This document shows, in pieces, positions 9,273 to 44,537 of a stretch of DNA of 64,000 bases (position 1 is its first letter; each line of letters opens with the position of its first letter). A model generated the notes under the pieces. It saw only the letters and a program-made list of their open reading frames with translations, made no database searches and was not told where the DNA came from. Location: the NCBI RefSeq assembly GCF_009931435.1, contig NZ_CP043414.1; one strand, written 5' to 3'. Both the position numbers and the translations under genes were made by a program. The DNA is from Escherichia coli. GTDB lineage: Bacteria; Pseudomonadota; Gammaproteobacteria; Enterobacterales; Enterobacteriaceae.

Positions 9273-10295
9273 ATGAGCGATTTTTGCAAGTTAGTTTTTC
9301 TATTGCCGGGTACGCTGAGCGCCTCGCTTGATTACAATGAGGTTGCTGCCATGGGTCTTGATAATATAGGTTCTGTTGTCAATCGCTTCTCTGGTTGGCC
9401 ATCAAATGATCCTCTAAAAACAGATAACGAATCAATGACATCACCCGTGACTGTGCAGGTAATAAAGTTGATTGCCGCCATCCTTGACCCACATCGGATA
9501 GTCGTTGGTATCGATACACTTTATACAACGCAGCGCAAAACATTTACCTCAGAGGGTCAACAACTCATTGAATCAGCATTGAAAACACTTAATGTGATGA
9601 ATTTAAATAACCTGGAAACAGATCGTGATGAGGAGGGTAACTATCTGGCTTTTGGATATAACGTTGACACTCCTGACAGAATAACCGTTTCTGCTTATAA
9701 TGAAAAAAAACCTTTCTGTTATGGCCAATGTCTTTTAATACAGGATGAAGAACCAGATTTATTTAACCTGGTAAAAATTAAAACCTTTGAAGCCAGGCAT
9801 AATTATGTTTCTAAATTGATGAGCGATCCGGAATTTATGTTTAAATTCAGTTATAGCGCCCAACAAAATAGATTAGAACCTCATCTTCTGGTTCCCACTT
9901 ATTTCCCTCTGAAAACAAACCAACCGGTTACGCTAGAGGATGTACTGATACTTTATCGTTTCTTTAAAATGAATGGCGATTTTAATATATTAACATCAGA
10001 TGAATACATGAGTATCATGACACCTCTGATGAAGTGTGAGCGTAGTATCCACGACCATAACAGGTATGTGACGGGCAAAGATGCTCTTCTTCTGGACAAT
10101 CCTCCGTCTGGTAACCAGATATATTTCCATATTTCCCCTGACGAATCAGCAACACTTGTCCTTTATTTTTCAGACAATAACCTTGAATCCTTCGTCTTTG
10201 AAAATGATATTCCGAGCCAGTATCGACATTTCAAAATGTTTACCAATTTAGCACTAGTTATTGATCAGTTAACCGACGCCAATCAAATACTTTAA
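9273..10295 (+). CDS. Hypothetical protein (340 aa), AT-rich, no recognisable domain
   Basis: Long uninterrupted ORF in a strongly AT-rich stretch unlike the flanking core genes; alternative start at 9351 (MGLDNIG...). Confidence 0.5.
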   Translation: MSDFCKLVFLLPGTLSASLDYNEVAAMGLDNIGSVVNRFSGWPSNDPLKTDNESMTSPVTVQVIKLIAAILDPHRIVVGIDTLYTTQRKTFTSEGQQLIESALKTLNVMNLNNLETDRDEEGNYLAFGYNVDTPDRITVSAYNEKKPFCYGQCLLIQDEEPDLFNLVKIKTFEARHNYVSKLMSDPEFMFKFSYSAQQNRLEPHLLVPTYFPLKTNQPVTLEDVLILYRFFKMNGDFNILTSDEYMSIMTPLMKCERSIHDHNRYVTGKDALLLDNPPSGNQIYFHISPDESATLVLYFSDNNLESFVFENDIPSQYRHFKMFTNLALVIDQLTDANQIL

Positions 10296-10374: not shown

Positions 10375-10797
10375 ATGACACCATCTCAGCTCTCTTTTAA
10401 TACTCTTCCTGTCAATGCAACATGCACTTCAGAGATAACAGTAAACACACAAAAATTCTCTGACATCCTCTACTCAGTGGGGTATTCCCTAAAGGATCTG
10501 GCTTATCTGAGCAGATGTCTGGCATCATTACACCCGACACTCGCCAAAAACATTTATGAAACGGAAAATCTCAGCGATCAAAAATTACTTTATATAGATT
10601 GCCGTAGTACAAATGAAATCAAGATAAATATCTTTTTGGGTCAAAAAAGAGAAGAATTAATCGAAATTAGTTCTGATACAGTCATTTTTTCGATACTGTC
10701 TTCATTGATTGACTCAGTTATTTCTGAACATCGACATCAAATCCCCGTTAACGATTCAAATAATTCTGAACTATTTTATGAGGATTATACTGATTAA
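10375..10797 (+). CDS. Hypothetical protein (140 aa), AT-rich, acidic C-terminus
   Basis: ORF immediately downstream of and co-directional with the 340-aa ORF; no recognisable motif. Confidence 0.45.
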   Translation: MTPSQLSFNTLPVNATCTSEITVNTQKFSDILYSVGYSLKDLAYLSRCLASLHPTLAKNIYETENLSDQKLLYIDCRSTNEIKINIFLGQKREELIEISSDTVIFSILSSLIDSVISEHRHQIPVNDSNNSELFYEDYTD

Positions 10798-11341
10798 ATC
10801 CACTCTGTACGAACCTGTCCTGCATTTATGCCAGAAGTATTAGAATCTTTGCTTAACGTTACTCATACAGTAGCACCTTCATGTGCCTCTCTTTTTTACG
10901 AAAAATCAAAAGAGCTAACAAAAGTCATTCTTCGCATGAATCATTAATTATTTGTTATTTTCAACATTATTTTTACATTAAGCATATATGAATTGCAGTG
11001 AAATTCGACTTAACTTTTATGAAATGCATTTACTCATGGCTAAAGCCACGTCACAAAAATGCAAATTAGAAGTTGATCACAATTATCTCAATCCATCAAA
11101 TCAAGTTAATTTTAAAAATTTAACATCCATGACATTAGTTGACATAACACGCTGAATTAAAATGAGAATTTAAAAAAACACTTTAAACAATCATTTCCCG
11201 AAAGACATTTTGAAAATAGATCAATTGCAACATTACGGTCAGATAAAGACACTCCTCTGATATTAAACCTGTGCCGTTATGAACGGCCATAAATACGACG
11301 TGTGTAACTTAATTTACTCTCTGTCTTACAAAGGATTACCC

Positions 11342-11791
11342 ATGAAGAAAGCAACACTTGTGATTGGCGTTATTGGCGCGGACTGCCATGCAGTAGGCAA
11401 TAAAGTTCTGGACCGCGTTTTTAGCAACCATGACTTCAGAGTCATTAATCTGGGCGTAATGGTCAGCCAGGACGAATATATTGATGCTGCCATTGAAACT
11501 GGCGCTGACGCGATTGTCGTCTCCTCTATCTATGGGCATGGCGATATCGATTGTCTGGGCATGCGCGAACGCTGCATCGAGCGTGGGCTGGGTAACATCC
11601 TGCTCTATGTGGGCGGTAACCTGGTGGTCGGAAAACATGACTTCGCTGACGTGGAAACCAAGTTCAAAGAGATGGGATTTGATCGCGTCTTTTCCCCAAG
11701 TCATGACTTAGAAGATGTTTGTCAGCTGATGGCCCACGATATCAACCAACGTCATGACGTTGATACTCGCATTCTTGAAGAGGCAATCTGA
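11342..11791 (+). CDS. glmS: Glutamate mutase sigma (S) subunit, B12-binding (methylaspartate mutase small subunit)
   Basis: [24 protein letters not shown]... carries the DxHxxG cobalamin-binding motif and aligns by eye with clostridial GlmS/MutS; start at 11342 chosen over the track's 11279 because of the RBS. Confidence 0.85.
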
Positions 11792-13179
11792 TGCAAATCG
11801 TCTCTGTCGATATTGGATCGACGTGGACCAAAGCAGCCCTCTTCACCCGGGAGGGGGACGCGTTAACGTTGGTTAACCACGTTCTGACCCCAACCACCAC
11901 CCATCATCTGGCGAAGGGGTTTTTCTCCAGCCTGGACCAGGTGTTAAACGTAGATGATGCCCTCCCCCTGTTAAACAGTGGTGAGGTTGCATTGAAGTAT
12001 TCCTCCTCTGCCAAAGGTGGGCTGGCGGTTGCCGCAATGGGAATAGTGCCTTCTATCACTCTGGAAACCGCGAAAGTAACCGCTCACTCTGCGGGTGCTA
12101 AAATTGCGCAATATTACGCCTACAAGCTGAACCGCCGTGATATCCAGGCACTGGAAGAAACGCAGCCCGATATTCTCTTGTTCACCGGCGGCACCGACGG
12201 CGGAGAAGAAAGCTACGGACTGAATAACGCCCGTGTGCTGGCAGAATCCAAACTCGACTGCGCCATTATTTATGCCGGAAACCGGGATATTCAGGACAAG
12301 GTGCAGGAGATCCTCGGGCATAAAGACCTGACCATCGTCGACAACGTTCTGCCCGATCTTGACCATCCGAACCCTTTAGCTGCACGCCAGGCTATCTGCG
12401 ACATATTCCTTAAACGCATCGTTAAAGGGAAAGGGCTGGATGTCATTGTTGATAAAACAGGCGAAGAACCAATGCCGACACCATGGACGGTCTTTGAACT
12501 GGTTAAGGCAATCAGTAACGTCGATCACAGCTGGAAAGAGTTCATGCTGATCGACATGGGCGGCGCAACCACCGATGTCTATTCCGCCTGTGCCAACACG
12601 CTCTCGCCCGACACTGTTTTACATGGCGTACCGGAACCCTTCGTAAAACGGACGGTGGAAGGCGATCTGGGAATGCGCGTCTCGGCAATGGTGGTTGGTG
12701 AAAGTGCGAAAGAGTTAGTCAGTGTGAATTTTGCTCAGCAACCCGCACAGTTGGACGCTTTTTATCATTACCTCCGTCATCTAGTCGCTCATCCCGACTA
12801 CTTACCCGCGAATGCAGATGAAAAATATTTCGATACCGTCCTGGCCGGACTGTGTGTGGGTTATGCCACCGAAAGACATGCGGGCACCAAAAAAGAGGTC
12901 TGCACCTGCGTCGGCAATGTCGATTTACAGATGGGACGTGACCTGACAACCGTGCGTAAAGTCGTGGGTTCCGGCGGATGGCTCTCGCGTGCCAGTCAGT
13001 TCGATATGCATCACTGGTTGAAATACCGCGAGTTAAACGACGACGGTAAACGCATTCTCTTACCGACCGAATTTGAATATTACCGCGATTCCCGGGGGCT
13101 ATTACCACTGCTGGCAAACGTCGCCAGAGTCGATCCGCTGGCCGCCGCGCGCACCAGTATTCAATGCTTAACCCTATAA
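11791..13179 (+). CDS. glmL: Glutamate mutase accessory protein GlmL/MutL (putative reactivating chaperone)
   Basis: 462-aa ORF sitting between the S and E subunit genes, as in clostridial mutS-mutL-mutE operons. Confidence 0.7.
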   Translation: MQIVSVDIGSTWTKAALFTREGDALTLVNHVLTPTTTHHLAKGFFSSLDQVLNVDDALPLLNSGEVALKYSSSAKGGLAVAAMGIVPSITLETAKVTAHSAGAKIAQYYAYKLNRRDIQALEETQPDILLFTGGTDGGEESYGLNNARVLAESKLDCAIIYAGNRDIQDKVQEILGHKDLTIVDNVLPDLDHPNPLAARQAICDIFLKRIVKGKGLDVIVDKTGEEPMPTPWTVFELVKAISNVDHSWKEFMLIDMGGATTDVYSACANTLSPDTVLHGVPEPFVKRTVEGDLGMRVSAMVVGESAKELVSVNFAQQPAQLDAFYHYLRHLVAHPDYLPANADEKYFDTVLAGLCVGYATERHAGTKKEVCTCVGNVDLQMGRDLTTVRKVVGSGGWLSRASQFDMHHWLKYRELNDDGKRILLPTEFEYYRDSRGLLPLLANVARVDPLAAARTSIQCLTL

Positions 13180-13197
13180 CAATTAAGGCTGCAATCA

Positions 13198-14643
13198 ATG
13201 GAACTTCGAAATAAGAAATTAACCCATGACGAATTCATGACCGAGCGGCAACAGGTATTGAAAACCTGGGAAACCGGCAAGGATGTTGAAAACTTTGAAG
13301 ATGGCGTTAAATACCAACAAACCATTCCTGAGCATAAACGCTTCTCTCTTGCCCTGCTGAAAGCAGACAAGGAAGGTAAAACCCTTAGCCAACCGCGCGC
13401 AGGCGTGGCGCTGATGGACGAACACATCGAACTACTGAAAACACTACAAGAAGAGTGCGATCTGCTGCCGAGCACTATCGATGCATATACCCGTCTGAAT
13501 CGGTACGAAGAAGCTGCTGTAGGGATTAAAAAATCCATCGAAGCCGGAACCTCTAAACTGAACGGTTTACCGGTAGTTAACCACGGCGTCGCAGCTTGCC
13601 GTCGCCTCACCGAAACTCTGCAAAAACCGCTACAGATCCGCCACGGCACGCCAGATGCGCGTCTGCTGGCTGAAATCTCGATGGCCAGCGGCTTTACCAG
13701 TTATGAAGGCGGCGGCATTTCCTACAATATTCCGTATGCCAAGCGCGTAACGCTGGAAAAATCGATCCGCGACTGGCAGTACTGCGATCGTTTAATGGGG
13801 ATGTACGAAGAACACGGGATCCGCATCAACCGCGAACCGTTTGGCCCACTAACGGGTACGCTGATCCCGCCGTTTATCTCGCACTCTATCGCAATAATCG
13901 AAGGCTTGCTGGCACTGGAACAGGGTGTGAAGTCTATCACCGTTGGTTATGGTCAGGTCGGTAGCCTGACGCAGGATGTTGCGGCGATCCAGTCTCTGCG
14001 GGAACTTGCACACGAATATTTTCAGAGCTATGGCTATACCGACTACGAATTAAGTACCGTGTTTCACCAGTGGATGGGAGGCTTTCCGGAGGACGAATCG
14101 AAAGCGTTCGCCATTATCTCCTGGGGTGCTGCAGTCGCGGGGATGTCTGGTGCTACCAAAGTCATCACCAAAAGTCCGCACGAAGCCTGGGGCATCCCGA
14201 CTGCTGCTGCCAACATTCAGGGGCTAAAAGCCTCCCGCCAGATGCTCAACATGGTCAACGAGCAGAAATTCCCGCCGTGCCCGGCGGTTGAACTAGAAAT
14301 TGAACTGATTAAGAGCGAGGTTCGCGCTGTACTGAACAAAGTGTTCGAACTGGGTAATGGTGATATTGCGCGCGGTACGGTGCTGGCATTTGAAGCGGGC
14401 GTACTGGATGTGCCGTTTGCACCAGCCGCCTGCAACGCGGGCAAAATTCTTCCGGTCCGTGACAACACCGGCGCGATACGCGTACTGGAAGCCGGAGCCG
14501 TTCCATTGCCAAAAGATATTCTCGACCTCCACCACGATTACGTTGCGGAACGCGCGCGCTTTGAAGGACGCCAACCGACATTCCAGATGGTTGTAGATGA
14601 CATCAATGCTGTATCCCACAGTAAATTAATAGGAAGACCATAA
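13198..14643 (+). CDS. glmE: Glutamate mutase epsilon (E) catalytic subunit
   Basis: 481 aa; MELRNKK...QPRAGVALMDEHIELL...PSTIDAYTR...GGGISYNIPYAK matches recalled Clostridium GlmE along its length. Confidence 0.9.
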   Translation: MELRNKKLTHDEFMTERQQVLKTWETGKDVENFEDGVKYQQTIPEHKRFSLALLKADKEGKTLSQPRAGVALMDEHIELLKTLQEECDLLPSTIDAYTRLNRYEEAAVGIKKSIEAGTSKLNGLPVVNHGVAACRRLTETLQKPLQIRHGTPDARLLAEISMASGFTSYEGGGISYNIPYAKRVTLEKSIRDWQYCDRLMGMYEEHGIRINREPFGPLTGTLIPPFISHSIAIIEGLLALEQGVKSITVGYGQVGSLTQDVAAIQSLRELAHEYFQSYGYTDYELSTVFHQWMGGFPEDESKAFAIISWGAAVAGMSGATKVITKSPHEAWGIPTAAANIQGLKASRQMLNMVNEQKFPPCPAVELEIELIKSEVRAVLNKVFELGNGDIARGTVLAFEAGVLDVPFAPAACNAGKILPVRDNTGAIRVLEAGAVPLPKDILDLHHDYVAERARFEGRQPTFQMVVDDINAVSHSKLIGRP

Positions 14644-15884
14644 TGAAAATAAAACAGGCCCTTTTTACCGCTGGCTACTCCTCATTCTATTTCGATGATC
14701 AGCAGGCGATAAAAAACGGAGCGGGTCACGACGGCTTTTTCTACACCGGAGAGCCGGTAACACAGGGGTTTAACGCCGTACGTCAGGCCGGGGAGTGCGT
14801 TTCGGTTCAGTTGATTCTGGAAAACGGTGCGGTCGCCGTAGGTGACTGTGCTGCCGTACAGTATTCCGGGGCAGGCGGTCGCGATCCACTGTTCCTCGCA
14901 GAGCACTTTATTCCGTTCCTCAACGACCATATCAAGCCATTACTGGTAGGCCGCGATGTGGATGCTTTCCTGCCGAATGCCCGTTTCTTCGACAAATTGC
15001 GTATTGACGGCAACTTGCTGCATACCGCCGTACGTTACGGATTATCACAGGCGCTGCTTGATGCTACCGCGCTGGCAACCGGCCGTCTGAAAACTGAAGT
15101 GGTCTGTGATGAATGGCAGTTGCCACGCGTGGCGGAATCCATTCCATTATTTGGTCAGAGCGGCGACGATCGATATATCGCCGTCGATAAGATGATCCTT
15201 AAGGGCATCGACGTGCTGCCCCATGCGCTGATTAATAACGTCGAAGAGAAACTGGGCTTTAAAGGTGAAAAACTGCGCGAATATGTCCGCTGGTTGTCAG
15301 ATCGCATTCTGAGCAAGCGCACCAGCGCACGCTACCACCCTACCCTGCACATCGATGTATACGGCACTATCGGTCTGATCTTCGATATGGATCCGCTTCG
15401 CTGTGCGCAATACATCGCCAGTCTGGAAAAAGAGGCGCAAGGCCTGCCGCTCTACATTGAGGGGCCGGTCGATGCCGGTAACAAGCCCGATCAAATCCGC
15501 CTGCTGACCGCGATTACCAAAGAGCTGACGCGCCTCGGTTCCGGCGTGAAAATCGTGGCCGATGAATGGTGTAACACCTACCAGGATATTGTTGATTTCA
15601 CTGATGCCGCCAGTTGCCACATGGTGCAAATCAAAACCCCGGATCTGGGCAGTATTCACAACATCGTCGATGCAGTTCTTTATTGCAACAGCCACAGCAT
15701 GGAAGCGTACCAGGGCGGCACCTGCAATGAAACTGATGTCAGTGCCCGCACCTGTGTCCACGTCGCCCTTGCTGCTCGCCCCATGCGTATGCTGGTAAAA
15801 CCAGGGATGGGCTTTGACGAAGGCCTCGATATCGTCTTCAACGAAATGAATCGTACTATCGCGCTGTTGCAGGCTAAGGATTAA
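14643..15884 (+). CDS. mal: 3-Methylaspartate ammonia-lyase (methylaspartase)
   Basis: 413-aa enolase-superfamily ORF (MKIKQALFTAGYSSFYFDDQ...), same length as clostridial MAL; start overlaps the glmE stop. Confidence 0.85.
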   Translation: MKIKQALFTAGYSSFYFDDQQAIKNGAGHDGFFYTGEPVTQGFNAVRQAGECVSVQLILENGAVAVGDCAAVQYSGAGGRDPLFLAEHFIPFLNDHIKPLLVGRDVDAFLPNARFFDKLRIDGNLLHTAVRYGLSQALLDATALATGRLKTEVVCDEWQLPRVAESIPLFGQSGDDRYIAVDKMILKGIDVLPHALINNVEEKLGFKGEKLREYVRWLSDRILSKRTSARYHPTLHIDVYGTIGLIFDMDPLRCAQYIASLEKEAQGLPLYIEGPVDAGNKPDQIRLLTAITKELTRLGSGVKIVADEWCNTYQDIVDFTDAASCHMVQIKTPDLGSIHNIVDAVLYCNSHSMEAYQGGTCNETDVSARTCVHVALAARPMRMLVKPGMGFDEGLDIVFNEMNRTIALLQAKD

Positions 15885-15887
15885 CAA

Positions 15888-17258
15888 ATGGCTCGTTCTT
15901 TTAAAGTCTTATCGCCAACGGCAATCCTCGGGTATGGATTCCCGGAAGAGAGCTTCCGCAAAGCGATGGCAGAATCGCCCGATCTGATCGCCGTTGATGC
16001 AGGCTCTTCCGATCCTGGCCCCCACTACCTCGGGGCGGGCAAACCGTTTACCGATCGCGCAGGGGTCAAGCGCGATCTGCGCTATATGATCACCGCAGGC
16101 GTGCAAAATAATATACCGGTGGTGATCGGAACGGCCGGCGGTTCTGGTGCCGCTCCACACCTGGAGTGGTGCCGAGAAATAATTCATGAGATTGCCCGGG
16201 AAGAGCACCTCGCGTTCTCGATGGCGCTGATCCCGGCAGACGTTGACAAAGCCATCGTCCACCAGGCGCTGGATAACGGCAAAATCACAGCGCTGGATTT
16301 TGTCCCGCCGTTAACCCACGACGCGATTGACGAAAGTACGTATATCGTCGCGCAAATGGGCATCGAACCCTTCCAGCAGGCGCTGAAAGAAGGCGCGCAA
16401 GTGGTGCTGGGCGGGCGCGCTTACGACCCGGCCTGCTTTGCTGCGCTACCGATCATGCAAGGCTTTGATGAAGGTCTGGCGCTGCATTGTGGGAAAATCC
16501 TTGAATGCGCGGCAATCGCCGCAACGCCCGGCTCAGGCTCTGACTGTGCGATGGGCATCATTGATGACAACGGCTTTACGCTGAAGACATTTAATCCGAA
16601 GCGTAAATTTACCGAAACGTCAGCGGCTGCACACACACTGTATGAGAAATCCGATCCCTACTTCCTGCCAGGACCTGGCGGCGTGTTGAACCTGAAAGGC
16701 TGCACATTTAAAGCGGTCAATGACGGCGAAGTGTACGTCAGCGGTTCTAAGCATGAAGAAACGCCGTATGCCCTGAAACTGGAAGGTGCGCGGCGGGTGG
16801 GCTTCCGCTGTCTGACCATCGCAGGAACGCGCGACCCGATCATGATCGCCGGGATCGATAAAATCATCGATGAAGTCAAAACCAGCGTTTCGCGTAACCT
16901 GTCGCTCGACGATGACAGCATTCGCATCAATTTCCACCTGTACGGCAAAAACGGGGTGATGGGCGACCATGAACCGATGCAAACTGCCGGGCATGAGCTG
17001 GGGATTGTCCTTGATGTAGTTGCACCGACCCAGGATATTGCCAATAGCGTTTGCTCGCTGGTGCGCTCTACCATGCTGCACTACGGCTATGAAAACCGCA
17101 TCGCTACCGCAGGCAACCTGGCGTTCCCGTTCTCCCCTTCTGATATCCAGGGCGGGCCGGTATACGAATTTTCCATATATCACCTGATTGAAGCCAACGA
17201 CGCTCTGCGTTTTGATTTCCATATTGAACAGGTGACGCCAGAAGGAGTTCAGGCATGA
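15888..17258 (+). CDS. DUF1446 (AtuA-like) family protein, function unknown
   Basis: 456-aa ORF tightly linked downstream of mal; sequence resembles the acyclic-terpene-utilisation AtuA-like family as recalled. Confidence 0.6.
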   Translation: MARSFKVLSPTAILGYGFPEESFRKAMAESPDLIAVDAGSSDPGPHYLGAGKPFTDRAGVKRDLRYMITAGVQNNIPVVIGTAGGSGAAPHLEWCREIIHEIAREEHLAFSMALIPADVDKAIVHQALDNGKITALDFVPPLTHDAIDESTYIVAQMGIEPFQQALKEGAQVVLGGRAYDPACFAALPIMQGFDEGLALHCGKILECAAIAATPGSGSDCAMGIIDDNGFTLKTFNPKRKFTETSAAAHTLYEKSDPYFLPGPGGVLNLKGCTFKAVNDGEVYVSGSKHEETPYALKLEGARRVGFRCLTIAGTRDPIMIAGIDKIIDEVKTSVSRNLSLDDDSIRINFHLYGKNGVMGDHEPMQTAGHELGIVLDVVAPTQDIANSVCSLVRSTMLHYGYENRIATAGNLAFPFSPSDIQGGPVYEFSIYHLIEANDALRFDFHIEQVTPEGVQA

Positions 17259-17572
17259 AACAGTCAATTGTCTCACTGGCGCAAGTCATTCGTTCGAAAA
17301 ATGCCGGACCTTACGAACTGGTTTTAGATATTTTATTTAAAACGAAAGAAAACTATGAGCGAGTAAAATCATCAGGGCAATTAACCCCAGAACTGATTGC
17401 GCGCTTATATCATGTTGAACCTGACTTTATTCATCGTATTGTCTGGTTTGATCCTTCTAACGCAGTAAAAATTGTCATGCCACGAGATATTATCTCCGGG
17501 AATGTAGGTGACAATGATGTCTATGGCGCACAGCAACATGCACCTTTATTAAATATGAGTTTCGATTTGTAA
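17255..17572 (+). CDS. DUF4387-family small protein (partner of DUF1446 proteins)
   Basis: 105-aa ORF overlapping the previous stop by 4 nt (translational coupling). Confidence 0.55.
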   Translation: MKQSIVSLAQVIRSKNAGPYELVLDILFKTKENYERVKSSGQLTPELIARLYHVEPDFIHRIVWFDPSNAVKIVMPRDIISGNVGDNDVYGAQQHAPLLNMSFDL

Positions 17573-17732
17573 AAATCCGAACACTTTTAGCCAACTGACA
17601 TCCCGTCACTTATTGCAGCTCAACACTTCAGCTATTTGTAAGGTTGTTATAGCAGGTAGATGCCTGAATCTCTATTCAGGCATCCACTTCTCCTGATTCT
17701 GATTTATCGCCGTGCACCTGATGGAGGAAAAA

Positions 17733-19013
17733 ATGAAGAAAATAAGTTTAACCACGATGATTCTTTTGGCGCTGGTACTTGGAATGATTATCGGCGTAGT
17801 GCTCAATAACACTGCTTCACCGGAAACAGCAAAACTCTATGCGCAAGAAATATCGATATTCACGACGATTTTCTTACGACTGATAAAAATGATTATCGCT
17901 CCGTTAGTGGTCTCTACCCTGGTGGTAGGTATTGCTAAAATGGGCGATGCCAAAGCCCTTGGTCGTATTTTTTCTAAAACACTCTTTTTATTTATTTGCG
18001 CCTCATTGCTGTCAATTGCCTTAGGCTTGATAACGGTAAATTTCTTCATGCCAGGCACAGGAATTAATTTTGTTGCACACGGTGCCGAAACCACCGGAGT
18101 GGTCGCGTCAGAACCCTTTACACTAAAAGTATTTATTTCGCATGCTTTCCCCACCAGCATTGTCGATGCCATGGCGCACAATGAAATTTTGCAAATCGTG
18201 GTGTTCTCAATTTTCCTCGGCTGTAGCCTGACGGCGATTGGTGAGAAAGGCAGCGCCATCGTTCACGCCTTAGATTCGCTGGCACATGCCATGTTAAAGC
18301 TCACTGGCTACGTCATGCTCTTCGCTCCCCTGACCGTATTCGCCGCTATTTCAGCATTGATTGCTGAACGAGGACTGGCAGTTATGGTGAGCGCCGGGAT
18401 CTTTATGGGTGAATTTTATTTCACCATGTTATTACTTTGGGTGCTGCTTATCGGTCTGGCCATCGTTTATGTCGGCCCCTGCATCAGACGCCTGACCCGC
18501 GCCCTTTCAGAACCCGCCCTGCTGGCATTTACCACATCCAGTTCTGAAGCTGCTTTTCCGGGAACGCTTGAAAAACTGGAGCAATTTGGCGTTTCCCCCA
18601 AAATTGCCAGCTTTGTCTTACCCATTGGCTACTCATTTAATCTCGTTGGATCAATGGCCTACTGCTCCTTCGCCACAGTTTTCATCGCCCAGGCCTGCAA
18701 TATCCATTTATCCATCGGTGAGCAAATCACCATGCTGTTGATCCTGATGTTGACCTCGAAAGGAATGGCTGGCGTACCACGCGCCTCAATGGTGGTTATC
18801 GCCGCCACGCTCAACCAGTTCAATATTCCGGAAGCGGGGCTGATCTTGCTGATGGGCGTTGATCCGTTCCTTGATATGGGGCGTTCCGCGACAAACGTCA
18901 TGAGCAACGCAATGGGCGCTGCGATGGTGAGTCGGTGGGAAGGCGAACATTTCGGCGAGGGCTGTCGGGGTAAAGCATTAAAACCCAATGAATCGAACGT
19001 TGCTCTGCCCTGA
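17733..19013 (+). CDS. Dicarboxylate/amino acid:cation symporter (DAACS, GltP-like); putative glutamate or C4/C5-dicarboxylate uptake
   Basis: About 426-aa polytopic membrane protein with DAACS-like sequence; GGAGG upstream of the ATG at 17733 (track ORF starts at 17712). Confidence 0.75.
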   Translation: MKKISLTTMILLALVLGMIIGVVLNNTASPETAKLYAQEISIFTTIFLRLIKMIIAPLVVSTLVVGIAKMGDAKALGRIFSKTLFLFICASLLSIALGLITVNFFMPGTGINFVAHGAETTGVVASEPFTLKVFISHAFPTSIVDAMAHNEILQIVVFSIFLGCSLTAIGEKGSAIVHALDSLAHAMLKLTGYVMLFAPLTVFAAISALIAERGLAVMVSAGIFMGEFYFTMLLLWVLLIGLAIVYVGPCIRRLTRALSEPALLAFTTSSSEAAFPGTLEKLEQFGVSPKIASFVLPIGYSFNLVGSMAYCSFATVFIAQACNIHLSIGEQITMLLILMLTSKGMAGVPRASMVVIAATLNQFNIPEAGLILLMGVDPFLDMGRSATNVMSNAMGAAMVSRWEGEHFGEGCRGKALKPNESNVALP

Positions 19014-19120
19014 GGGGGATCTTAAGCAATCAGAAGCCAATGACTACGCATTTTTATAAGCCGGATCATGAAGTTAGACGGCAATTAAGTAACACTAACG
19101 TTTAAGGTGAAAAGTGAAAT

Positions 19121-20773
19121 ATGTCCAAACCATTTATCTGGCAAGAACCGTTTCTACAAAATAAAGACGGTACAGAATATACATTAATTAGCGATCAACA
19201 TATTACAGTAACGGAATTAGACGGCGAAGAAGTAATAAAAATCGCTCCTGAAGCATTAACGCTGCTTGCCCGGCAGGCATTTTATGAAGCCTCTTTTTTC
19301 TTACGTTCCGCTCATTTGCAACAGGTCGCCAGCATTCTTAACGATCCGCAGGCCAGCAGTAATGATAAATACGTTGCGTTGCAGTTATTACGTAATGCTG
19401 AAGTCTCAGCAAAAGGGGTATTACCCAACTGTCAGGATACCGGCACCGCAACTATTGTTGCCAGTAAAGGGCAACAGATATGGACGGGAGGTAACGACGC
19501 TGAAGCCTTAAGCAAAGGCATTTACAGTACTTTCCAGGAAAATAATCTGCGCTTTTCACAAAATGCGCCGCTGGATATGTATACCGAAGTCAATACGCAA
19601 ACCAATCTTCCGGCGCAGATTGATATCAGCGCTGTCGCTGGTAATGAGTACCATTTTCTCTGTGTTAATAAAGGGGGCGGCTCCGCCAATAAAGCCGCAC
19701 TTTATCAGGAAACCAAATCCTTATTGCAACCAGAAAAACTGACCGCATTTTTAATCGACAAAATGAAATCGTTGGGCACGGCCGCCTGCCCGCCCTACCA
19801 CATCGCCTTTGTCGTCGGAGGGCTTTCAGCCGATCAAACCTTAAAAGTTGCCAAGCTGGCCTCTACGAAATATTACGACAATTTGCCCACCAGCGGAAAC
19901 GAGCAGGGACAAGCATTCCGTGATATTGAGCTGGAAAAAGCGTTGCTCGAGGCCAGTCAGCAATTTGGTATTGGTGCGCAATTTGGGGGTAAATATTTCG
20001 CTCATGATATTCGCGTCATTCGTCTGCCGCGTCACGGTGGCTCTTGCCCGATAGCTATGGCGCTCTCCTGTTCTGCCGATCGCAATATCAAAGCAAAAAT
20101 TAACAAGCATGGTATCTGGCTGGAAAAACTCGAACACAATCCGGGGCAATATATTCCAGCCTCACTGCGGGAAGAAAATCACGCGCAACATGTACAGCTG
20201 GATCTAAACCGTCCGTTGCGTGACGTGATGCAGGATCTCGCCAGATTACCGGTAGGTACCCGCGTGTCGTTAAGTGGTCCCATCGTAGTGGCGCGCGATA
20301 TCGCCCACGCAAAAATAAAAGCGCGGCTGGATAGCGGCGAATCGATGCCGGATTACCTGAAGCATCATATTGTCTATTACGCTGGCCCGGCGAAAACACC
20401 GGAGAACATGGCCTGCGGTTCACTGGGTCCAACCACGGGCGGTCGAATGGACGGTTATGTCGAAACCTTCCAGGCGGCTGGCGGCAGTCTGGTAATGTTA
20501 TCGAAAGGTAACCGCAGCCAGCAGGTCACCGATGCCTGTCACAAACATGCAGGCTTCAATCTGGGAAGTATTGGCGGTGCAGCTGCGTTACTGGCGCAAG
20601 AATATGTCAAAAGTCTGCGTTGCCTGGAATACCCGGAGCTGGGTATGGAGGCGGTGTGGATGATGGAAGTGGAAAATCTGCCCGCATTCATCCTGGTTGA
20701 TGATAAAGGCAATAATTTCTTTAGCCAGTTTGAGCAGCAACACCGCTGCGCCAGTTGCCCTGCGGGACATTAA
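19121..20773 (+). CDS. fumD: Class I (Fe-S) fumarate hydratase family; probable mesaconase/fumarase
   Basis: 550-aa FumA/FumB-like ORF (..[10 protein letters not shown]..); its position in a glutamate mutase/methylaspartase cluster suggests mesaconate hydratase. Confidence 0.8.
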
Positions 20774-20782
20774 GGAAAATGA

Positions 20783-21385
20783 ATGGAAGCGCGAATTTCA
20801 ACTGAACGGCATGTGCAGCGCCAACAGAAATTGAAGGAACAGGTCGATACGCGCGTCGCGGCGGCGATAGAGAAAAAAGGGATCTTGATTGTTTTCACCG
20901 GCAACGGCAAAGGGAAATCCACTGCCGCGTTTGGTACTGTGACGCGCGCGGTGGGTCATGGCAAAACGGTGGGGGTTGCGCAGTACATCAAGGGGCAATG
21001 GGACAACGGCGAATACAACCTTCTCCAGCCGCTGGGGGTTGAGTTTCATATTATGGGAACCGGTTTTACCTGGGAGACTCAGAACCGGCAAGCGGATATC
21101 GACGCGGCGAAAGAGGTCTGGTCGGAAAGCAAACGGATGCTGGCTGACAAGCGTTACGACTTAGTGGTGCTTGATGAGCTGACCTATATGCTGGCTTACC
21201 ATTATCTGGACACCGAAGAAGTGATCACTTCTCTGCAAAACCGCCCGGCACAACAAAGTGTCATTGTCACCGGACGCAGTTGCCACAGTCAGATATTAAA
21301 AATGGCGGATACGGTCAGCGAAATCCGCCCCGTCAAACATGCTTTTGATAACGGCATTCAGGCGCAGCCGGGTATCGACTGGTAA
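20783..21385 (+). CDS. Cob(I)yrinic acid a,c-diamide / corrinoid adenosyltransferase (CobA/BtuR/CobO family)
   Basis: 200-aa ORF with P-loop GNGKGKSTAAFG; would supply adenosylcobalamin for glutamate mutase. Confidence 0.8.
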   Translation: MEARISTERHVQRQQKLKEQVDTRVAAAIEKKGILIVFTGNGKGKSTAAFGTVTRAVGHGKTVGVAQYIKGQWDNGEYNLLQPLGVEFHIMGTGFTWETQNRQADIDAAKEVWSESKRMLADKRYDLVVLDELTYMLAYHYLDTEEVITSLQNRPAQQSVIVTGRSCHSQILKMADTVSEIRPVKHAFDNGIQAQPGIDW

Positions 21386-21418
21386 TAACTGCGCCTGGCA
21401 TCCAGCCAGGCGCAGGTT

Positions 21419-22324
21419 TTACATCTCCTGCGGTACGACCGATTTCGCCAGCAACCATTCACGAAATTGCTGCAAGTGCGGCGAGTCAGACTTCTCTTCC
21501 TGCCACGTCATAATAAAACGATTACCGGTACGAATAGGCACATCACAGGGAATCACCATATCGCCACTATCCAAATCATGTTGAATAGCGAACCGTGGTA
21601 ACAGCGCCACGCCGAGATTAGAGCGCACGGCGGCAATCAGCATTGAAAGCAAATCGAAACGTGGTCCGTTATTGACCAGCGGACTGCTAACGCCAGATAA
21701 AGCAAACCACTCTTCCCAGCCAGTAATACGGGTGCTTTGATGCAGAAGTGGTAACTCAGTAAGCAGTTCTGCCACTGACAGTTTTTGATCGGACATTGCA
21801 AGCAAACTGCCGCTGCATACCGGCAAAATCTCCTCTTCAAAGAGATATTCTACTTCCGCCCAGGGCGCGCAAAAATTTTCGCGCATAATGACAGCATCGT
21901 ACTCCCGATTAAGAAAATCGCCGTTATTAGCTAAAGAATGAATATTAACAATAATATCGGGATGTAACTTTGTGAATTCATGTAAATTTGGGATTAACCA
22001 GTGGGTACTAAACGTAGGATTAACGGCAAGTTCAATAACCTGAACCGTAGGCTGCCAGGTCATAATCGTATTGGTATCGCGCTCCAATTTATTTAATGTT
22101 TCTTTTACTATCCCCAGGTAATACTTCCCTGCATCATTAAGAAAAATGCGTTTTTTAGAGTGTGAAAATAACGGAGTATGTAAAAATTCCTCCAACGCAC
22201 TTACTTGTCTGAATACTGCACTTTGGGTTAACGCTAACTCCTCTGCCGCTCTGGTATAACTTTCATGACGTGCGACGACCTCAAAAGTCACCAGCAGCTC
22301 CGTTTTAGGTATTTTTCCTCGCAT
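21419..22324 (-). CDS. LysR-family transcriptional regulator
   Basis: 301 aa; N-terminal HTH (LLVTFEVVARHESYTRAAEELALTQSAVFRQVSALE) plus substrate-binding domain. Confidence 0.85.
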   Translation of the reverse strand: MRGKIPKTELLVTFEVVARHESYTRAAEELALTQSAVFRQVSALEEFLHTPLFSHSKKRIFLNDAGKYYLGIVKETLNKLERDTNTIMTWQPTVQVIELAVNPTFSTHWLIPNLHEFTKLHPDIIVNIHSLANNGDFLNREYDAVIMRENFCAPWAEVEYLFEEEILPVCSGSLLAMSDQKLSVAELLTELPLLHQSTRITGWEEWFALSGVSSPLVNNGPRFDLLSMLIAAVRSNLGVALLPRFAIQHDLDSGDMVIPCDVPIRTGNRFIMTWQEEKSDSPHLQQFREWLLAKSVVPQEM

Positions 22325-22594: not shown

Positions 22595-24265
22595 TTATTT
22601 TTGATTTATAGCATATCCCTCTAAGAATTTTTGCGATGCTTCAATATCCGGGGTAAAGACCCGATCCTGACTGACAAATGGCACGACTTGACGATAAGCG
22701 GTGAACATCGCTTTTGTTGATTTGCCTAACGCCAGCTGTGGATCGGCTTGCAAGCGCAAATCAATCGCCTGGGCAGAATGCATCAGTTCAATGCCATAAA
22801 TGACATTCAAATTATCAACAACCTGTTTCAATCTTCTCGCCGCGTGGTCGTTATTGGCACCCGTATCTTCAATGCCTCCGGCTACCGGTTGAATATCGAA
22901 AGAAACCGGGTTAGCGAGATCGACATTTTCCGCATGCAGCGCAACAAACGGGATATGTAATGAACCGAAGCCATGACCTTTATTACCTGCTGCCGACAGG
23001 AAGCGTGACAAACCGGTAAAGTGATCATCTTCAAGATGCAGCGAGCGGCGCATACTGTTATGTGAAACATGCACTAACGCCACGGTCAGACGCTGGGTGG
23101 CAAGCGCAACCGGTAACGATTCGAAATTCGCCGTCGGGAAGATCCCACCGCTGATTGCCCCATCTTTAACAAAATATTGCGCGACCTGACTGGAGTCCTG
23201 ATACGCTTTGTCTGCATTCAGCACGGTTGCCGGGTTGTCATCGGAACTGTTGATCTGCACGGTAATGGTATCTTCAGCATCGCGCAACGCGCGCATTGCC
23301 TCAGAAATGGTATACACCGTCGTTCTGAACGATAACGGATCCTGCAATGCACGTTTGTCATCCTTATGCCATAAATAAGAACCACTTAACGCATCGCGAA
23401 TCTCTTTAGCGGAATCAGCCAACTGCGGGAAAGGACGCACGGCGATCGACTGCGGCAGTACCGGCGCGACATTGCCATTCAACGCTTCGAGGCTCATGGC
23501 GAAAACCACCGGACTGACATTCAGCACCTGGCGTGCCGACCGTACCGCTTCAATTGCATATGCTGTTCCGACACTGTTGTTCGACAAAATCGCCAGCATA
23601 TCTTTACCCTGCGGGACCAGTGGTTTAAGCCCCACTTTCACCAGCGCATCGCCACCACTCATTTCCACGCCATTAACCCGCGCTTTCCACTCGCCCATCA
23701 TCACCAGACCAACGTGTGAAGCGAGCATAATATCCGCTGCGCCGATACTTCCCCGCGCCGGAATTAACGGCGTAACGCCTCGATTAATAAACTCGGCATA
23801 CAACTCGGCAATATAAGGCTGCGCGCCGGTTTGCCCATGCAACATAGTATTTAAACGTAACACCATTGAGAGACGGGCAAGATAATCCGGCAACATCGGA
23901 CCGACGCCCGCAGAATGGGCGCGCAGCGCGGCAGCATTAAATTTTTTCGATGCGTCAATCACCTCAGGCGTTAAATTTCCTTTGGCATCAAATATGGGCT
24001 GATCTTTATTTAGCCCCACGCCCACGGTTAAGCCATAAACAGGCGTACCTGAATGCGCGGCAGTCATCACCAGATCATAACTTTTTTCCATGCGCTCCAT
24101 GGCGTTCGACGCGATTTTGACGCCGTTATCACCTAATGCAATTGACCAGGCCTGGTCAATAGAGAGATGTTCGCCATCCAGCGTAATGGTTGATTTTGCC
24201 ATCGCGATGGAGCAAACGCTCCAGAGCACAACGGTGACAGTGACTCTGCGTATCAATCCTTTCAT
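22595..24265 (-). CDS. Histidine ammonia-lyase-like protein (aromatic amino acid lyase fold) with N-terminal signal peptide and no Ala-Ser-Gly MIO triad
   Basis: 556 aa; MKGLIRRVTVTVVLWSVCSIAMA|KS signal-like N-terminus; region aligning to the HAL GSxGASGDLAPL motif reads GSIGAADIMLASH. Confidence 0.7.
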   Translation of the reverse strand: MKGLIRRVTVTVVLWSVCSIAMAKSTITLDGEHLSIDQAWSIALGDNGVKIASNAMERMEKSYDLVMTAAHSGTPVYGLTVGVGLNKDQPIFDAKGNLTPEVIDASKKFNAAALRAHSAGVGPMLPDYLARLSMVLRLNTMLHGQTGAQPYIAELYAEFINRGVTPLIPARGSIGAADIMLASHVGLVMMGEWKARVNGVEMSGGDALVKVGLKPLVPQGKDMLAILSNNSVGTAYAIEAVRSARQVLNVSPVVFAMSLEALNGNVAPVLPQSIAVRPFPQLADSAKEIRDALSGSYLWHKDDKRALQDPLSFRTTVYTISEAMRALRDAEDTITVQINSSDDNPATVLNADKAYQDSSQVAQYFVKDGAISGGIFPTANFESLPVALATQRLTVALVHVSHNSMRRSLHLEDDHFTGLSRFLSAAGNKGHGFGSLHIPFVALHAENVDLANPVSFDIQPVAGGIEDTGANNDHAARRLKQVVDNLNVIYGIELMHSAQAIDLRLQADPQLALGKSTKAMFTAYRQVVPFVSQDRVFTPDIEASQKFLEGYAINQK

Positions 24266-24315
24266 TGTGTTTCCTTATTTTGATGAGTTTAACAACGGAT
24301 TACTGCAACAACCTC

Positions 24316-26477: not shown

Positions 26478-27064
26478 AAGGATTTTTCCCCTCGTAGATA
26501 ATAAATCCACCAACCCGCCAGCTCGCCGACGGAGACTTTTTGCTGTGGTACGAAACGCCAGGAGTTGCCATCAGGCGCAAACCGCCATAACAACGTATTC
26601 GCCGTTACAAACACCCTGTTCTCGCCGCTTATCCACTCCCCTTCACACAGCGTGAACAGCCCCGCTTGCGCATGCGCCGGAGGGAGCCAGTCAATGACGC
26701 TTTGCACACGACGCATCCCCGCATCGCCTTCCCGCGCCATAATATTCAGATCGCGAACCCCGCCGCCCAGCAGCTGACAATCAGGCATTGCTTCTCCAGG
26801 GAAAATTAAGGCGGGATCGTGACGTTGCAGGTTGATGATCGAATCGGCAAACGTTAGCTTCACCCCTTCCCCGTCGAGGATCGCGAGGCCACGAACCACG
26901 CCAGGCCACGCTGAAAAAGGGCCATCCTGACTGACATTCGCCATACTGATGCGCAACAACCAGTTTTCATCATCGGGCCAGGCAAGCAGCTGTCGGGTAA
27001 ACCCCCCGCCGTTGCGCCACGGTTGCAGCGGCTTATCCATTGCAGAAATCAGCATCGGTTCCAT
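26474..27064 (-). CDS. hutD: HutD-family protein
   Basis: 196-aa ORF (..PWRNGGGFTRQL..) resembling HutD; embedded in the hut cluster. Confidence 0.65.
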   Translation of the reverse strand: MEPMLISAMDKPLQPWRNGGGFTRQLLAWPDDENWLLRISMANVSQDGPFSAWPGVVRGLAILDGEGVKLTFADSIINLQRHDPALIFPGEAMPDCQLLGGGVRDLNIMAREGDAGMRRVQSVIDWLPPAHAQAGLFTLCEGEWISGENRVFVTANTLLWRFAPDGNSWRFVPQQKVSVGELAGWWIYYLRGEKSL

Positions 27065-27065
27065 A

Positions 27066-28475: not shown

Positions 28476-28638
28476 GAAAAAGTCTCCTGCAAAATGAGAG
28501 GTCATTTTTTGAAACAGCAATAGAGGGTCGGGAGATATTTTTCTCGACGATGTAAAAATATTTTTTGATAATTATTGTTATACAGGCGAATTATTCTCCG
28601 CCTGTATTAGCGCAAATATTAAATGACGGCGTTAATAT

Positions 28639-44508: not shown

Positions 44509-44537
44509 CTGCTGATTCCTAAGCAGTAAATTCTGTT

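Follow-up and report, generated by a model that had tools for sequence, protein, structure and literature searches.

A catabolic segment beside cydA in Escherichia coli raises the question of how far its enzymes would carry glutamate. We analysed a 64,000-nucleotide stretch of contig NZ_CP043414.1 (assembly GCF_009931435.1), hereafter the window. Our preferred reading, to which we assign a probability of roughly 85%, is that the segment is the enterobacterial version of the methylaspartate-pathway operon and codes for every step that leads from L-glutamate to pyruvate, acetate and ammonia. The operon is already known; two of its genes, formerly ‘unknown’, are now matched to a solved citramalate lyase.

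An intact operon shared with O157:H7

As originally predicted, nine co-directional, tightly packed genes with intact reading frames occupy positions 11342–21385 of the plus strand, in the order glmS, glmL, glmE, mal, an AtuA/DUF1446 gene (cmlA), a DUF4387 gene (cmlB), a DAACS transporter gene, fumD and cobO (Table 1). Neighbouring genes overlap by 1 nt at glmS/glmL and glmE/mal and by 4 nt at cmlA/cmlB, and are separated by 18 nt (glmL–glmE), 3 nt (mal–cmlA), 160 nt (cmlB–transporter), 107 nt (transporter–fumD) and 9 nt (fumD–cobO). At the 3′ end lies a GC-rich hairpin, the top terminator-like site in a terminator scan and likely a bidirectional terminator closing the operon, followed by a convergent LysR-type regulator gene. 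The overlapping or closely spaced genes, together with this strong terminal hairpin, support an operon structure.

The operon and LysR proteins are approximately 98–100% identical to ECs_0755–0764 of E. coli O157:H7 Sakai, in the same order, and the earlier statement that a FumD-containing cluster had been reported in O157:H7 proved correct (Kronen & Berg 2015, PMC4682846). Judged by its sequence, the segment is an intact copy of the B12-dependent glutamate-breakdown operon already described in that organism.

Table 1. Features of the window discussed in the text, with identities to O157:H7 Sakai orthologues
Feature	Coordinates	Strand	Sakai orthologue, protein identity	Basis or remark
Hypothetical protein, 314 aa	9351..10295	+	ECs_0767, 85.7%	Left-hand gene of variable cassette
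Hypothetical protein, 140 aa	10375..10797	+	ECs_0766, 83.6%	No database match
Conserved 21-nt element, TTTTGAAAATAGATCAATTGC	11208..11228	+		~115 nt 5′ of glmS
glmS, glutamate (methylaspartate) mutase sigma subunit, B12-binding	11342..11791	+	ECs_0764, 98.7%	NCBIfam, PDB, Sakai
glmL (mutL), glutamate mutase accessory/reactivating protein	11791..13179	+	ECs_0763, 98.3%	NCBIfam, Sakai
glmE, glutamate mutase epsilon (catalytic) subunit	13198..14643	+		TIGR01503, PDB, residues
mal, 3-methylaspartate ammonia-lyase	14643..15884	+	99.8%	TIGR01502, PDB 1KKO, residues
cmlA, predicted citramalate lyase large subunit (annotated AtuA/DUF1446)	15888..17258	+		PDB 9ERQ/9EVF chain A
cmlB, predicted citramalate lyase small subunit (DUF4387)	17255..17572	+		PDB 9ERQ chain B
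DAACS-family dicarboxylate/amino-acid:cation symporter	17733..19013	+	ECs_0758, 99.8%	Family scores, Sakai
fumD, class I (Fe-S) fumarase, mesaconase/fumarase	19121..20773	+	ECs_0757, 98.2%	NF011921, Sakai, 5L2R
cobO/cobA, ATP:cob(I)alamin adenosyltransferase	20783..21385	+		NF004637, TIGR00708
GC-rich hairpin	21389..21415	.		Stem of 11 bp with 9 GC pairs; separates cobO from the convergent LysR gene
LysR-type transcriptional regulator	21419..22324	-	ECs_0755, 99.3%	GcvA subfamily model, Sakai
hut-like block	22595..30435	-		Lyase, HutG, HutI, HutD, NCS1 transporter, HutU (in plus-strand coordinate order)

A predicted glutamate mutase and its cobalamin supply

Comparison with Clostridium, where GlmS and GlmE are 58–60% identical to their C. 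cochlearium counterparts, and with the near-identical Sakai proteins bears out the earlier assignments of GlmS, GlmL, GlmE and the corrinoid adenosyltransferase, all of which exceed curated cut-offs. GlmS reached the equivalog score of its NCBIfam model (251 bits; cut-off 110), is 60% identical to C. cochlearium GlmS (PDB 1I9C/1CCW) across 124 aa and carries the base-off/His-on B12-binding motif DxHxxG (D14, H16, G19). A methylmalonyl-CoA mutase relative was rejected, as that family's C-terminal domain model scored 46 bits, under its cut-off of 57. The annotated glmS start is 11342; the mechanical open reading frame begins at 11279, and the family-model alignment at residue 22. GlmE also reached its equivalog score (TIGR01503, 865 bits; cut-off 390) and aligns along its entire length with C. 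cochlearium GlmE (6H9E/1CCW) at 58% identity. Its residues R67, R99, R148, E170 and Y180 align with R66, R100, R149, E171 and Y181 of the clostridial subunit, of which we take the three arginines to be the substrate-binding triad, accompanied by Glu171 and Tyr181. GlmS and GlmE are therefore predicted, on homology, to form an adenosylcobalamin-dependent glutamate mutase.

GlmL, which would maintain or reactivate the mutase, scored 507 bits against NCBIfam NF040745 (cut-off 475) and 883 bits against TIGR01319. CobO scored 295 bits against NF004637 (cut-off 185) and 245 bits against TIGR00708 (cut-off 168). E. coli is not known to synthesize B12 de novo, so CobO would adenosylate salvaged corrinoid, and it probably supplies adenosylcobalamin to the mutase. 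No Rfam match, to a cobalamin riboswitch or otherwise, was found at E ≤ 1 in positions 8000–34000.

From methylaspartate to citramalate

Family scores, structures and near-identity to Sakai agree on the next two enzymes, originally called as methylaspartate ammonia-lyase (MAL) and a candidate mesaconase. MAL scored 544 bits against TIGR01502 (cut-off 286) and its closest solved structure is that of the Citrobacter amalonaticus enzyme (PDB 1KKO; 898 bits, ungapped full-length alignment); the clostridial structure 1KCZ also aligned without gaps (502 bits). All catalytic and metal-binding residues are kept (K331, H194, Q329, D238, E273 and D307), as are Q172, C361 and L384. A different enolase-superfamily enzyme was rejected, the next model scoring just 20 bits. 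The MAL of E. coli O157:H7 has been characterised and is active in vitro and in vivo.

FumD scored 1276 bits against the class I fumarate hydratase model NF011921/PRK15392 (cut-off 1060), and its three cluster-ligand cysteine motifs align with those of Leishmania fumarate hydratase (5L2R). As a candidate FumA it was rejected (923 bits, under the FumA cut-off of 1105). The O157:H7 enzyme is a mesaconase that prefers mesaconate 2- to 3-fold (Kronen & Berg 2015, PMC4682846).

A predicted citramalate lyase after mal

The original prediction was right about the presence of a DUF1446/DUF4387 pair, but it ended the route at mesaconate, and that part did not stand: by homology, its products are orthologues of CmlA and CmlB, the two subunits of a solved citramalate lyase (CmlAB). 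CmlA is 92.1% identical across all 456 residues to chain A of PDB 9ERQ/9EVF (E = 3e-292), and CmlB matches chain B of 9ERQ over residues 1–104 (E = 5e-57); these chains are named ‘Citramalate lyase, subunit A (cmlA)’ and ‘subunit B (cmlB)’. The encoded route would therefore run past mesaconate, from glutamate to pyruvate and acetate. In Pfam, CmlA has a weak match to AtuA (PF07287, E = 7e-19) and CmlB matches DUF4387 (PF14330, E = 3e-39); public annotation still lists the two as ‘acyclic terpene utilization AtuA family protein’ and ‘DUF4387’. Raoultella planticola CmlAB is reported to convert (S)-citramalate to pyruvate and acetate (bioRxiv 10.64898/2026.01.16.699985), and the E. coli pair is predicted, most likely correctly, to cleave the same substrate. 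This assignment draws on the PDB molecule names and on one preprint's use of the enzyme; the literature searched contained no primary paper on CmlAB. Genes for a clostridial CitDEF-type lyase (CitD, CitF, CitE) are absent from positions 8923–32482, where all open reading frames are accounted for.

Gene context points the same way across several phyla. In 57 of 58 loci no more than 100 nt separate the end of mal from the start of cmlA, and the order glmS-glmL-glmE-mal-cmlA-cmlB is kept among the 61 loci retrieved with CmlA, which span Enterobacterales, Aromatoleum/Azoarcus, Telmatospirillum, Firmicutes MAGs, Dictyoglomaceae and Desulfotomaculum. This co-inheritance with glmSLE-mal, the translational coupling of cmlA and cmlB and the match to a solved lyase all weigh against a proposal by Kronen & Berg, whose paper did not account for the DUF1446 gene or for what becomes of citramalate. 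Having found no citramalate-cleaving activity in O157:H7 extracts, they suggested that the module turns glutamate into mesaconate or (S)-citramalate to be secreted, for instance to influence the host, and not for catabolism (Kronen & Berg 2015, PMC4682846); a C5-dicarboxylate is a conceivable cargo of the DAACS transporter. In O157:H7 ATCC 700728, however, MAL activity was undetectable too, and glutamate gave neither anaerobic growth nor growth stimulation (PMC4682846). Because the operon was unexpressed in the cells extracted in 2015, the missing lyase activity is uninformative, and we regard secretion as a very unlikely purpose.

Transport, regulation and the direction of flux

The transporter (426 aa from ATG 17733, as opposed to a GTG at 17712) is a DAACS member, as first proposed. 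It was rejected as either DctA (314 bits; cut-off 513) or GltP (304 bits; cut-off 638), and so fits neither named family; Kronen & Berg called it ‘GltP’ (PMC4682846). Its substrate is presumed to be glutamate or a C5-dicarboxylate and, as it falls below both cut-offs, methylaspartate or mesaconate could be the physiological entry point instead of glutamate.

The operon might accordingly serve mainly to exploit C5 compounds from outside the cell (3-methylaspartate, mesaconate or citramalate), or run backwards to produce glutamate, with the mutase as an accessory step in both cases. The mutase and MAL can each work in either direction, engineered E. coli has been shown to carry flux from methylaspartate to glutamate, and loci in Morganella, Hafnia and Budvicia keep glmSLE-mal-cmlAB and the transporter with no fumD within 10 kb. 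Against this, the strictly conserved glmS-to-cmlB core makes sense only as a link between glutamate and pyruvate plus acetate, most enterobacterial versions of the cluster carry a dedicated B12 adenosyltransferase, and thermodynamics favour the cleavage of citramalate at all but high acetate (bioRxiv 10.64898/2026.01.16.699985). We thus consider such a role unlikely, and favour glutamate breakdown.

The convergent LysR gene, whose product best matches the GcvA subfamily model (221 bits, under the cut-off of 288), is kept at the equivalent position in at least 27 enterobacterial loci and is presumed to regulate the cluster. When the 300-nt regions preceding glmS in 37 enterobacterial loci were aligned, TTTTGAAAATAGATCAATTGC was the sole long run of columns conserved at ≥90%; the rest of the leader, which has a GC content of 32%, is unconserved. 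We propose that the operon probably stays off in laboratory media, that the adjacent LysR-type protein would switch it on, and that TTTTGAAAATAGATCAATTGC, a candidate operator or promoter element in this AT-rich leader, may be the control site.

An accessory cassette under selection

The cluster adjoins cydA, as first described. Comparison of the sucD–cydA slot among 5426 complete E. coli genomes placed the cassette in 1135 (~21%), always in this slot, which mngRAB occupies in 3887 (~72%). The operon is thus an accessory cassette and an alternative to mngRAB. Relative to an mngRAB-type strain, positions 8923 to 32482 make up the variable segment. Its left-hand gene (9351..10295; ~36% GC) is found in glm-type E. 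coli and missing from the mngRAB-type strain, and its product diverges further from Sakai than the operon proteins do (Table 1). Neither this protein nor that of 10375..10797 matched NCBIfam, Pfam, PADLOC, PHROGs or PDB.

Absence from ~79% of genomes, an AT-rich leader typical of xenogeneic silencing and the lack of any expression condition found in O157:H7 (PMC4682846) would fit a cryptic remnant, silenced and without a present role in E. coli. However, all twelve proteins, namely the nine of the operon, LysR and the pair of hypotheticals upstream, are intact both here and in Sakai, catalytic residues are preserved, more than 1100 genomes retain ≥80% of the 10.6-kb segment, and O157:H7 MAL and FumD are active enzymes. 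Against Klebsiella and Citrobacter orthologues, dN/dS was 0.02–0.08 for genes with estimable dS, values that are approximate because dS is saturated (>1). Together with the intactness of all genes, these ratios indicate selection on the operon, and make a remnant extremely improbable.

The island also holds the hut-like cluster that had been noted beside the operon. Comparison with glm-only strains delimits a hut-like/RtcB block of 9.7 kb (22733 to 32448); it is a rarer feature than the glm operon, present in ~2.6% of genomes and always joined to it. The lyase with which it begins (22595–24265) has a signal peptide and no MIO motif, and was rejected as HutH (277 bits; hutH cut-off 539), with GSIGAADIM in place of ASG. 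Its best PDB match is ergothionase 6S7J (295 bits), although the ergothionase lysine for the ergothioneine thiolate (K384 in T. denticola) is replaced by Ile438 (‘GFGSLHIPF’); homologues from Shewanella, Hafnia, Citrobacter and Sutterella read ‘AFGAIQK’ in the K384 region. The protein thus resembles an ergothionase-like trimethylammonia-lyase homologue, not a histidine ammonia-lyase. The predicted end product of the block is glutamate, the operon's substrate, and the block may feed a histidine betaine into glutamate.

Proposed pathway

Taken in order, the encoded steps would be as follows. The DAACS symporter would import glutamate, which GlmS/GlmE, given their clostridial identity and catalytic residues, would rearrange to (2S,3S)-3-methylaspartate. 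MAL would remove ammonia to give mesaconate, and FumD would hydrate this to (S)-citramalate, as shown for the O157:H7 enzyme. CmlAB would then split (S)-citramalate directly into pyruvate and acetate, without an acyl-carrier or CoA intermediate. The overall reaction would be redox-neutral and, with pyruvate formate-lyase and Pta-AckA, could yield about 1 ATP per glutamate anaerobically.

Comparison with known systems

The O157:H7 Sakai cluster has the same genes, order, strands and sucD–cydA slot, but lacks the hut-like/RtcB block joined here on the LysR side. The solved CmlAB (PDB 9ERQ, 9EVF; the R. planticola enzyme in the preprint) shares the two-gene cmlA-cmlB arrangement but comes from a different genus, the orthologous pair in the window being predicted from sequence. 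The clostridial methylaspartate pathway (C. tetanomorphum, C. cochlearium and C. tetani) uses the same chemistry and homologous GlmS, GlmL, GlmE and MAL. It differs in having a two-subunit mesaconase, MesAB, where a single-chain class I fumarase, FumD, is encoded here; a CitDEF-like acyl-carrier complex with CitCXG in place of CmlAB (PMC4682846); a GntR regulator, whereas this operon has LysR and its own CobO; and a butyrate branch, which is absent here. In the haloarchaeal methylaspartate cycle, acetate assimilation proceeds through activation of mesaconate to mesaconyl-CoA; in contrast, the operon described here encodes a mesaconase and a predicted CoA-independent lyase, and no CoA-transferase.

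Operon layout and gene identities

An ORF scan of the window identified nine intact ORFs, all on the plus strand, in the order glmS, glmL, glmE, mal, cmlA, cmlB, a DAACS transporter gene, fumD and cobO. Adjacent genes overlap or are separated by 3-18 nt, the exceptions being gaps of 160 and 107 nt that flank the transporter gene. The original prediction of nine co-directional, tightly spaced genes was thus confirmed in every particular (ORFs, family models and spacing), and its gene assignments are supported by NCBIfam and Pfam matches, by alignments to solved structures and by catalytic residues. The NCBIfam search returned no match for either the AtuA or the DUF4387 protein.

Features of the operon and its surroundings, with family-model scores where available
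Feature	Coordinates	Strand	Details
Two hypothetical genes	9351-10295 and 10375-10797	+	Between cydA and glmS; GC ~36%
Leader element, 21 nt	11208-11228		Candidate regulatory site
Nine-gene operon	11342-21385	+	
GlmS		+	NCBIfam 251 bits (cut-off 110)
GlmL		+	NCBIfam 507 bits (cut-off 475)
GlmE		+	NCBIfam 865 bits (cut-off 390)
3-Methylaspartate ammonia-lyase (MAL)		+	NCBIfam 544 bits (cut-off 286)
cmlA product		+	Pfam AtuA (formerly DUF1446), E 7e-19
cmlB product		+	Pfam DUF4387, E 3e-39
DAACS symporter		+	NCBIfam; below both DctA and GltP cut-offs
FumD, class I fumarate hydratase, PRK15392 type		+	1276 bits (cut-off 1060); under FumA cut-off
CobA/CobO adenosyltransferase		+	NCBIfam 295 bits (cut-off 185)
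Strong hairpin	21389-21415		Between cobO and convergent LysR gene
LysR-type regulator gene	21419-22324		Convergent with operon
Lyase gene	22595-24265	-	Labelled 'HAL/PAL/TAL', 'histidine ammonia-lyase'
NCS1 transporter and canonical HutU/HutI/HutG/HutD genes	24316-30435	-	Coupled to lyase gene
RtcB-family RNA ligase gene	31094-32492	+	sucD end of island

GlmS and GlmE share 60% (over 124 residues) and 58% identity, respectively, with the crystallised glutamate mutase of Clostridium cochlearium; GlmS contains the DxHxxG cobalamin motif and GlmE has counterparts of R66, R100, R149, E171 and Y181. MAL aligned without gaps to the enzymes of Citrobacter amalonaticus (1KKO, 898 bits) and C. tetanomorphum (1KCZ), retaining K331, H194, Q329, the Mg ligands D238/E273/D307 and the pocket residues, while the alignment of FumD with the class I fumarate hydratase of Leishmania spans 519 residues and takes in the three Fe-S-cluster cysteine motifs. 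The two assignments that would contradict the original prediction did not materialize: GlmS as a methylmalonyl-CoA-mutase-type or other B12 enzyme was ruled out by a mutase domain model score of 46 bits (cut-off 57), and MAL as another member of the enolase superfamily by a score of 20 bits for the next model in that superfamily.

The cluster is that described in O157:H7

E. coli O157:H7 Sakai carries an identically ordered set of these genes at the same site, as ECs_0755-ECs_0764. All twelve proteins compared are intact in both genomes, and identity across the ten that belong to the cluster is 98.2-100%. The cluster was reported by Kronen & Berg (2015, PMC4682846) as a 'glutamate fermentation gene cluster' present in 26.5% of E. 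coli genomes and in 90.6% of those of O157:H7. They gave the additional fumarase the name FumD and found that it preferred mesaconate 2- to 3-fold over fumarate. The operon is therefore already described, its spread among pathogenic enterobacteria and the activity of FumD having been published in 2015, as was anticipated when the cluster was called probably not new. The same authors pointed out that a DUF1446 gene of unknown function follows mal, detected no citramalate-cleaving activity, regarded the fate of (S)-citramalate as unclear and identified no conditions that led O157:H7 to express the cluster (PMC4682846). The O157:H7 MAL was characterised later than 2015 and used in vivo. Of the 5426 complete E. 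coli genomes searched here, 1135 have the segment.

CmlAB matches a solved citramalate lyase

The step missing in 2015, citramalate cleavage, is now matched at the sequence level by a solved enzyme. Chains A and B of PDB entries 9ERQ and 9EVF are named 'Citramalate lyase, subunit A (cmlA)' and 'subunit B (cmlB)'; the AtuA protein aligned with the CmlA chain over all 456 residues (E 3e-292, 92.1% identity) and residues 1-104 of the DUF4387 protein with the CmlB chain (E 5e-57). Our full-text literature search found no primary paper on CmlAB and returned solely a 2026 preprint that uses the enzyme (bioRxiv 10.64898/2026.01.16.699985), in which 'Cml' (cmlAB) was taken from Raoultella planticola as a gift of the Berg laboratory.

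Current labels of these genes are misleading. RefSeq names cmlA 'acyclic terpene utilization AtuA family protein' and cmlB 'DUF4387 domain-containing protein', and the Sakai annotation (ECs_0757-0760) gives cmlA as a second '3-methylaspartate ammonia-lyase', cmlB as 'acyl-CoA synthetase' and fumD as 'fumA'. Correcting the annotation of cmlA and cmlB is the practical value of this result.

Using CmlA to search one genome per prokaryotic species, followed by tblastn with all island proteins, we obtained 61 loci. The order glmS-glmL-glmE-mal-cmlA-cmlB was held in Escherichia, Klebsiella, Citrobacter, Salmonella, Enterobacter, Yersinia, Morganella and Hafnia, as well as in Aromatoleum/Azoarcus, Telmatospirillum, Firmicutes MAGs, Dictyoglomaceae and Desulfotomaculum. 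In 57 of 58 loci cmlA follows mal at a distance of no more than 100 nt; mal is missing from three loci, one of them a 384-bp fragment and the others two short MAG contigs. The complete set seen in enterobacteria, with transporter, fumD, cobO and convergent LysR gene, was present in 27 loci. Because dN/dS was 0.02-0.08 against Klebsiella and Citrobacter orthologues where dS could be estimated (approximate values, as dS is saturated), the operon genes appear to be functional rather than remnants.

Five loci from Budvicia, Enterobacteriaceae bacterium B14, Morganella and Hafnia (L039, L040, L042, L043 and L052) keep glmS-glmL-glmE-mal-cmlA-cmlB-transporter, with no fumD, cobO or LysR homologue within 10 kb; there, housekeeping class I fumarases presumably carry out the mesaconase reaction. 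In two MAG contigs, DXKH01000067.1 ('Citrobacter sp.') and JAIJJM010000101.1 ('Collinsella sp.'), the glm/cml genes are 97-100% identical to those of the window. The former additionally has Escherichia-linked hypothetical genes, and its MAG also holds a genuine 92% copy (L014). Both bins are probably contaminated with E. coli.

The sucD-cydA slot holds alternative cassettes

Compared with an mngRAB-type strain, homology ends at 8922, beyond the cydA regulatory region, and restarts at 32483, just before sucD; compared with glm-only strains (E26 and Sakai), it extends to 22732 and restarts at 32449. Because of these breaks, we conclude that the sucD-cydA slot (8923-32482) holds alternative cassettes in E. 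coli; these are mngRAB in 3887 of the 5426 genomes, the glm cassette in 1135 and neither in about 400. The same breakpoints bear out the proposed insertion of the operon beside cydA, in one island with a hut-like cluster.

In E. coli both upstream hypothetical genes accompany the glm cassette, and among the loci compared no other genus has them; the sole exception outside E. coli is a 49%-identical match to one of them, hypA, in an Escherichia sp. (L007). Their products are only 84-86% identical to the Sakai orthologues, compared with 98-100% for the adjoining operon proteins. Searches of NCBIfam, Pfam, PADLOC, PHROGs and PDB gave no match that would make them defence, phage or known-family proteins. 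Other low-GC stretches lie at 44001-45000 (0.41) and 60001-61000 (0.33), the rest of the window being ~52% GC. The RtcB gene, intact at 465 aa in strain 2020CK-00188, is here split into two overlapping ORFs (222 and 283 aa) by the insertion of one base into a run of Cs (CCCC to CCCCC, ~31690), and is either a pseudogene or a sequencing error.

A conserved element in the operon leader

The operon leader comprises 544 nt at 32% GC. When the 300-nt regions preceding glmS in 37 enterobacterial loci were aligned, one conserved island stood out, TTTTGAAAATAGATCAATTGC, a 21-nt element at least 90% conserved and ~115 nt upstream of glmS; the rest of the AT-rich leader is unconserved. We regard it as a candidate regulatory site. 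FNR sites have the form TTGAT-N4-ATCAA. The conserved TTGA-N7-TCAA is mis-spaced for a canonical FNR site, which was rejected, and since the half-site spacing differs we left the regulator unassigned. Scanning 8000-34000 against Rfam by E-value turned up neither a cobalamin riboswitch nor any other known RNA element, whether in the leader or between genes, and a sigma-70 scan gave 15 promoter-like sites compared with 22 in shuffles, none convincingly positioned before glmS. The LysR regulator and the leader element offer concrete handles on how the operon is switched on.

The neighbouring block encodes an ergothionase-family lyase

An extra 9.7-kb block accompanies the glm cassette in 143-144 of the 5426 E. 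coli genomes (~2.6%), IAI39 and CE10 included, and is joined to cobO-LysR in every carrier. It is apparently also present in E. marmotae, joined to the glutamate-fermentation operon; tblastn found no hut-like genes near the glm cluster in the 61 loci of other species. The description of this block as hut-like held for HutU, HutI and HutG, which score above their equivalog cut-offs (HutU being under those for thiourocanate hydratase and S-methyl-thiourocanate hydratase), but not for the lyase. With 277 bits against a hutH cut-off of 539, and without the MIO-forming Ala-Ser-Gly triad, it was rejected as the histidine ammonia-lyase HutH.

Its closest solved relative is the Treponema denticola ergothionase (PDB 6S7J; 295 bits, compared with 168 for a true HAL), and its N-terminus carries a Sec-type signal peptide, MKGLIRRVTVTVVLWSVCSIAMA/K. 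Bertsova et al. described periplasmic 'trimethylammonia-lyases' in Shewanella, in which the mark of an ergothionase is a Lys equivalent to T. denticola K384, replaced in enzymes for sulfur-free substrates (histidine betaine for Swoo_3913, N-pi-methyl histidine betaine for SO_3299). In the lyase this thiolate-binding position is Ile438 ('GFGSLHIPF'), and a true ergothionase was rejected on account of this replacement. The position reads the same in its closest relatives, from E. marmotae, Enterococcus and some metagenomic proteins, while homologues from Shewanella, Hafnia, Citrobacter, Sutterella and E. albertii retain 'AFGAIQK'. The most economical reading, offered as a prediction, is a periplasmic histidine-betaine-type trimethylammonia-lyase yielding urocanate and trimethylamine, with SO_3299 illustrating that loss of the Lys does not suffice to predict histidine betaine as the substrate. 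A 2026 paper reported no annotated ergothionase homologue in E. coli genomes; our comparisons show that a homologue of this family exists in a minority of strains.

On this prediction, the lyase would act in the periplasm on histidine betaine (hercynine), or on a closely related N-trimethyl-histidine derivative, and release urocanate and trimethylamine, the NCS1 transporter would import the product, HutU, HutI and HutG would take it to glutamate, and the B12-dependent operon would carry glutamate on to pyruvate and acetate. That block and operon form one contiguous 'histidine betaine to acetate' island in ~2.6% of E. coli genomes is a tentative proposal, to which we give about one chance in three. 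If true, it would assign a catabolic role to a lyase family known so far only with periplasmic urocanate-type reductases (Shewanella), and would reveal an unrecognised trimethylamine source in E. coli. The block is the part that deserves separate follow-up.

Proposed pathway and comparison with the clostridial route

Glutamate would be taken up and, on the basis of homology, converted by GlmSE to methylaspartate, with GlmL as reactivase and CobO supplying adenosylcobalamin from salvaged corrinoid. MAL would release NH3 to give mesaconate and FumD would hydrate mesaconate to (S)-citramalate, both activities having been shown for the O157:H7 enzymes (Sakai proteins 99.8% and 98.2% identical, respectively). 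CmlAB would then cleave (S)-citramalate to pyruvate and acetate, as reported for the R. planticola enzyme (solved chain 92% identical). The net reaction, glutamate + H2O to NH3 + acetate + pyruvate, would be balanced and redox-neutral, and ATP could follow via pyruvate formate-lyase and Pta-AckA. Read in this way, the genes equip about one-fifth of E. coli strains, in genetic potential, for a complete glutamate fermentation that is redox-neutral and B12-dependent, which matters for colonisation of the gut and for the competition over glutamate and corrinoids.

The proposed route differs from the clostridial pathway by two non-homologous replacements: single-chain FumD stands in place of MesAB as mesaconase, and CmlAB in place of the CitDEF-type acyl-carrier complex as citramalate lyase.
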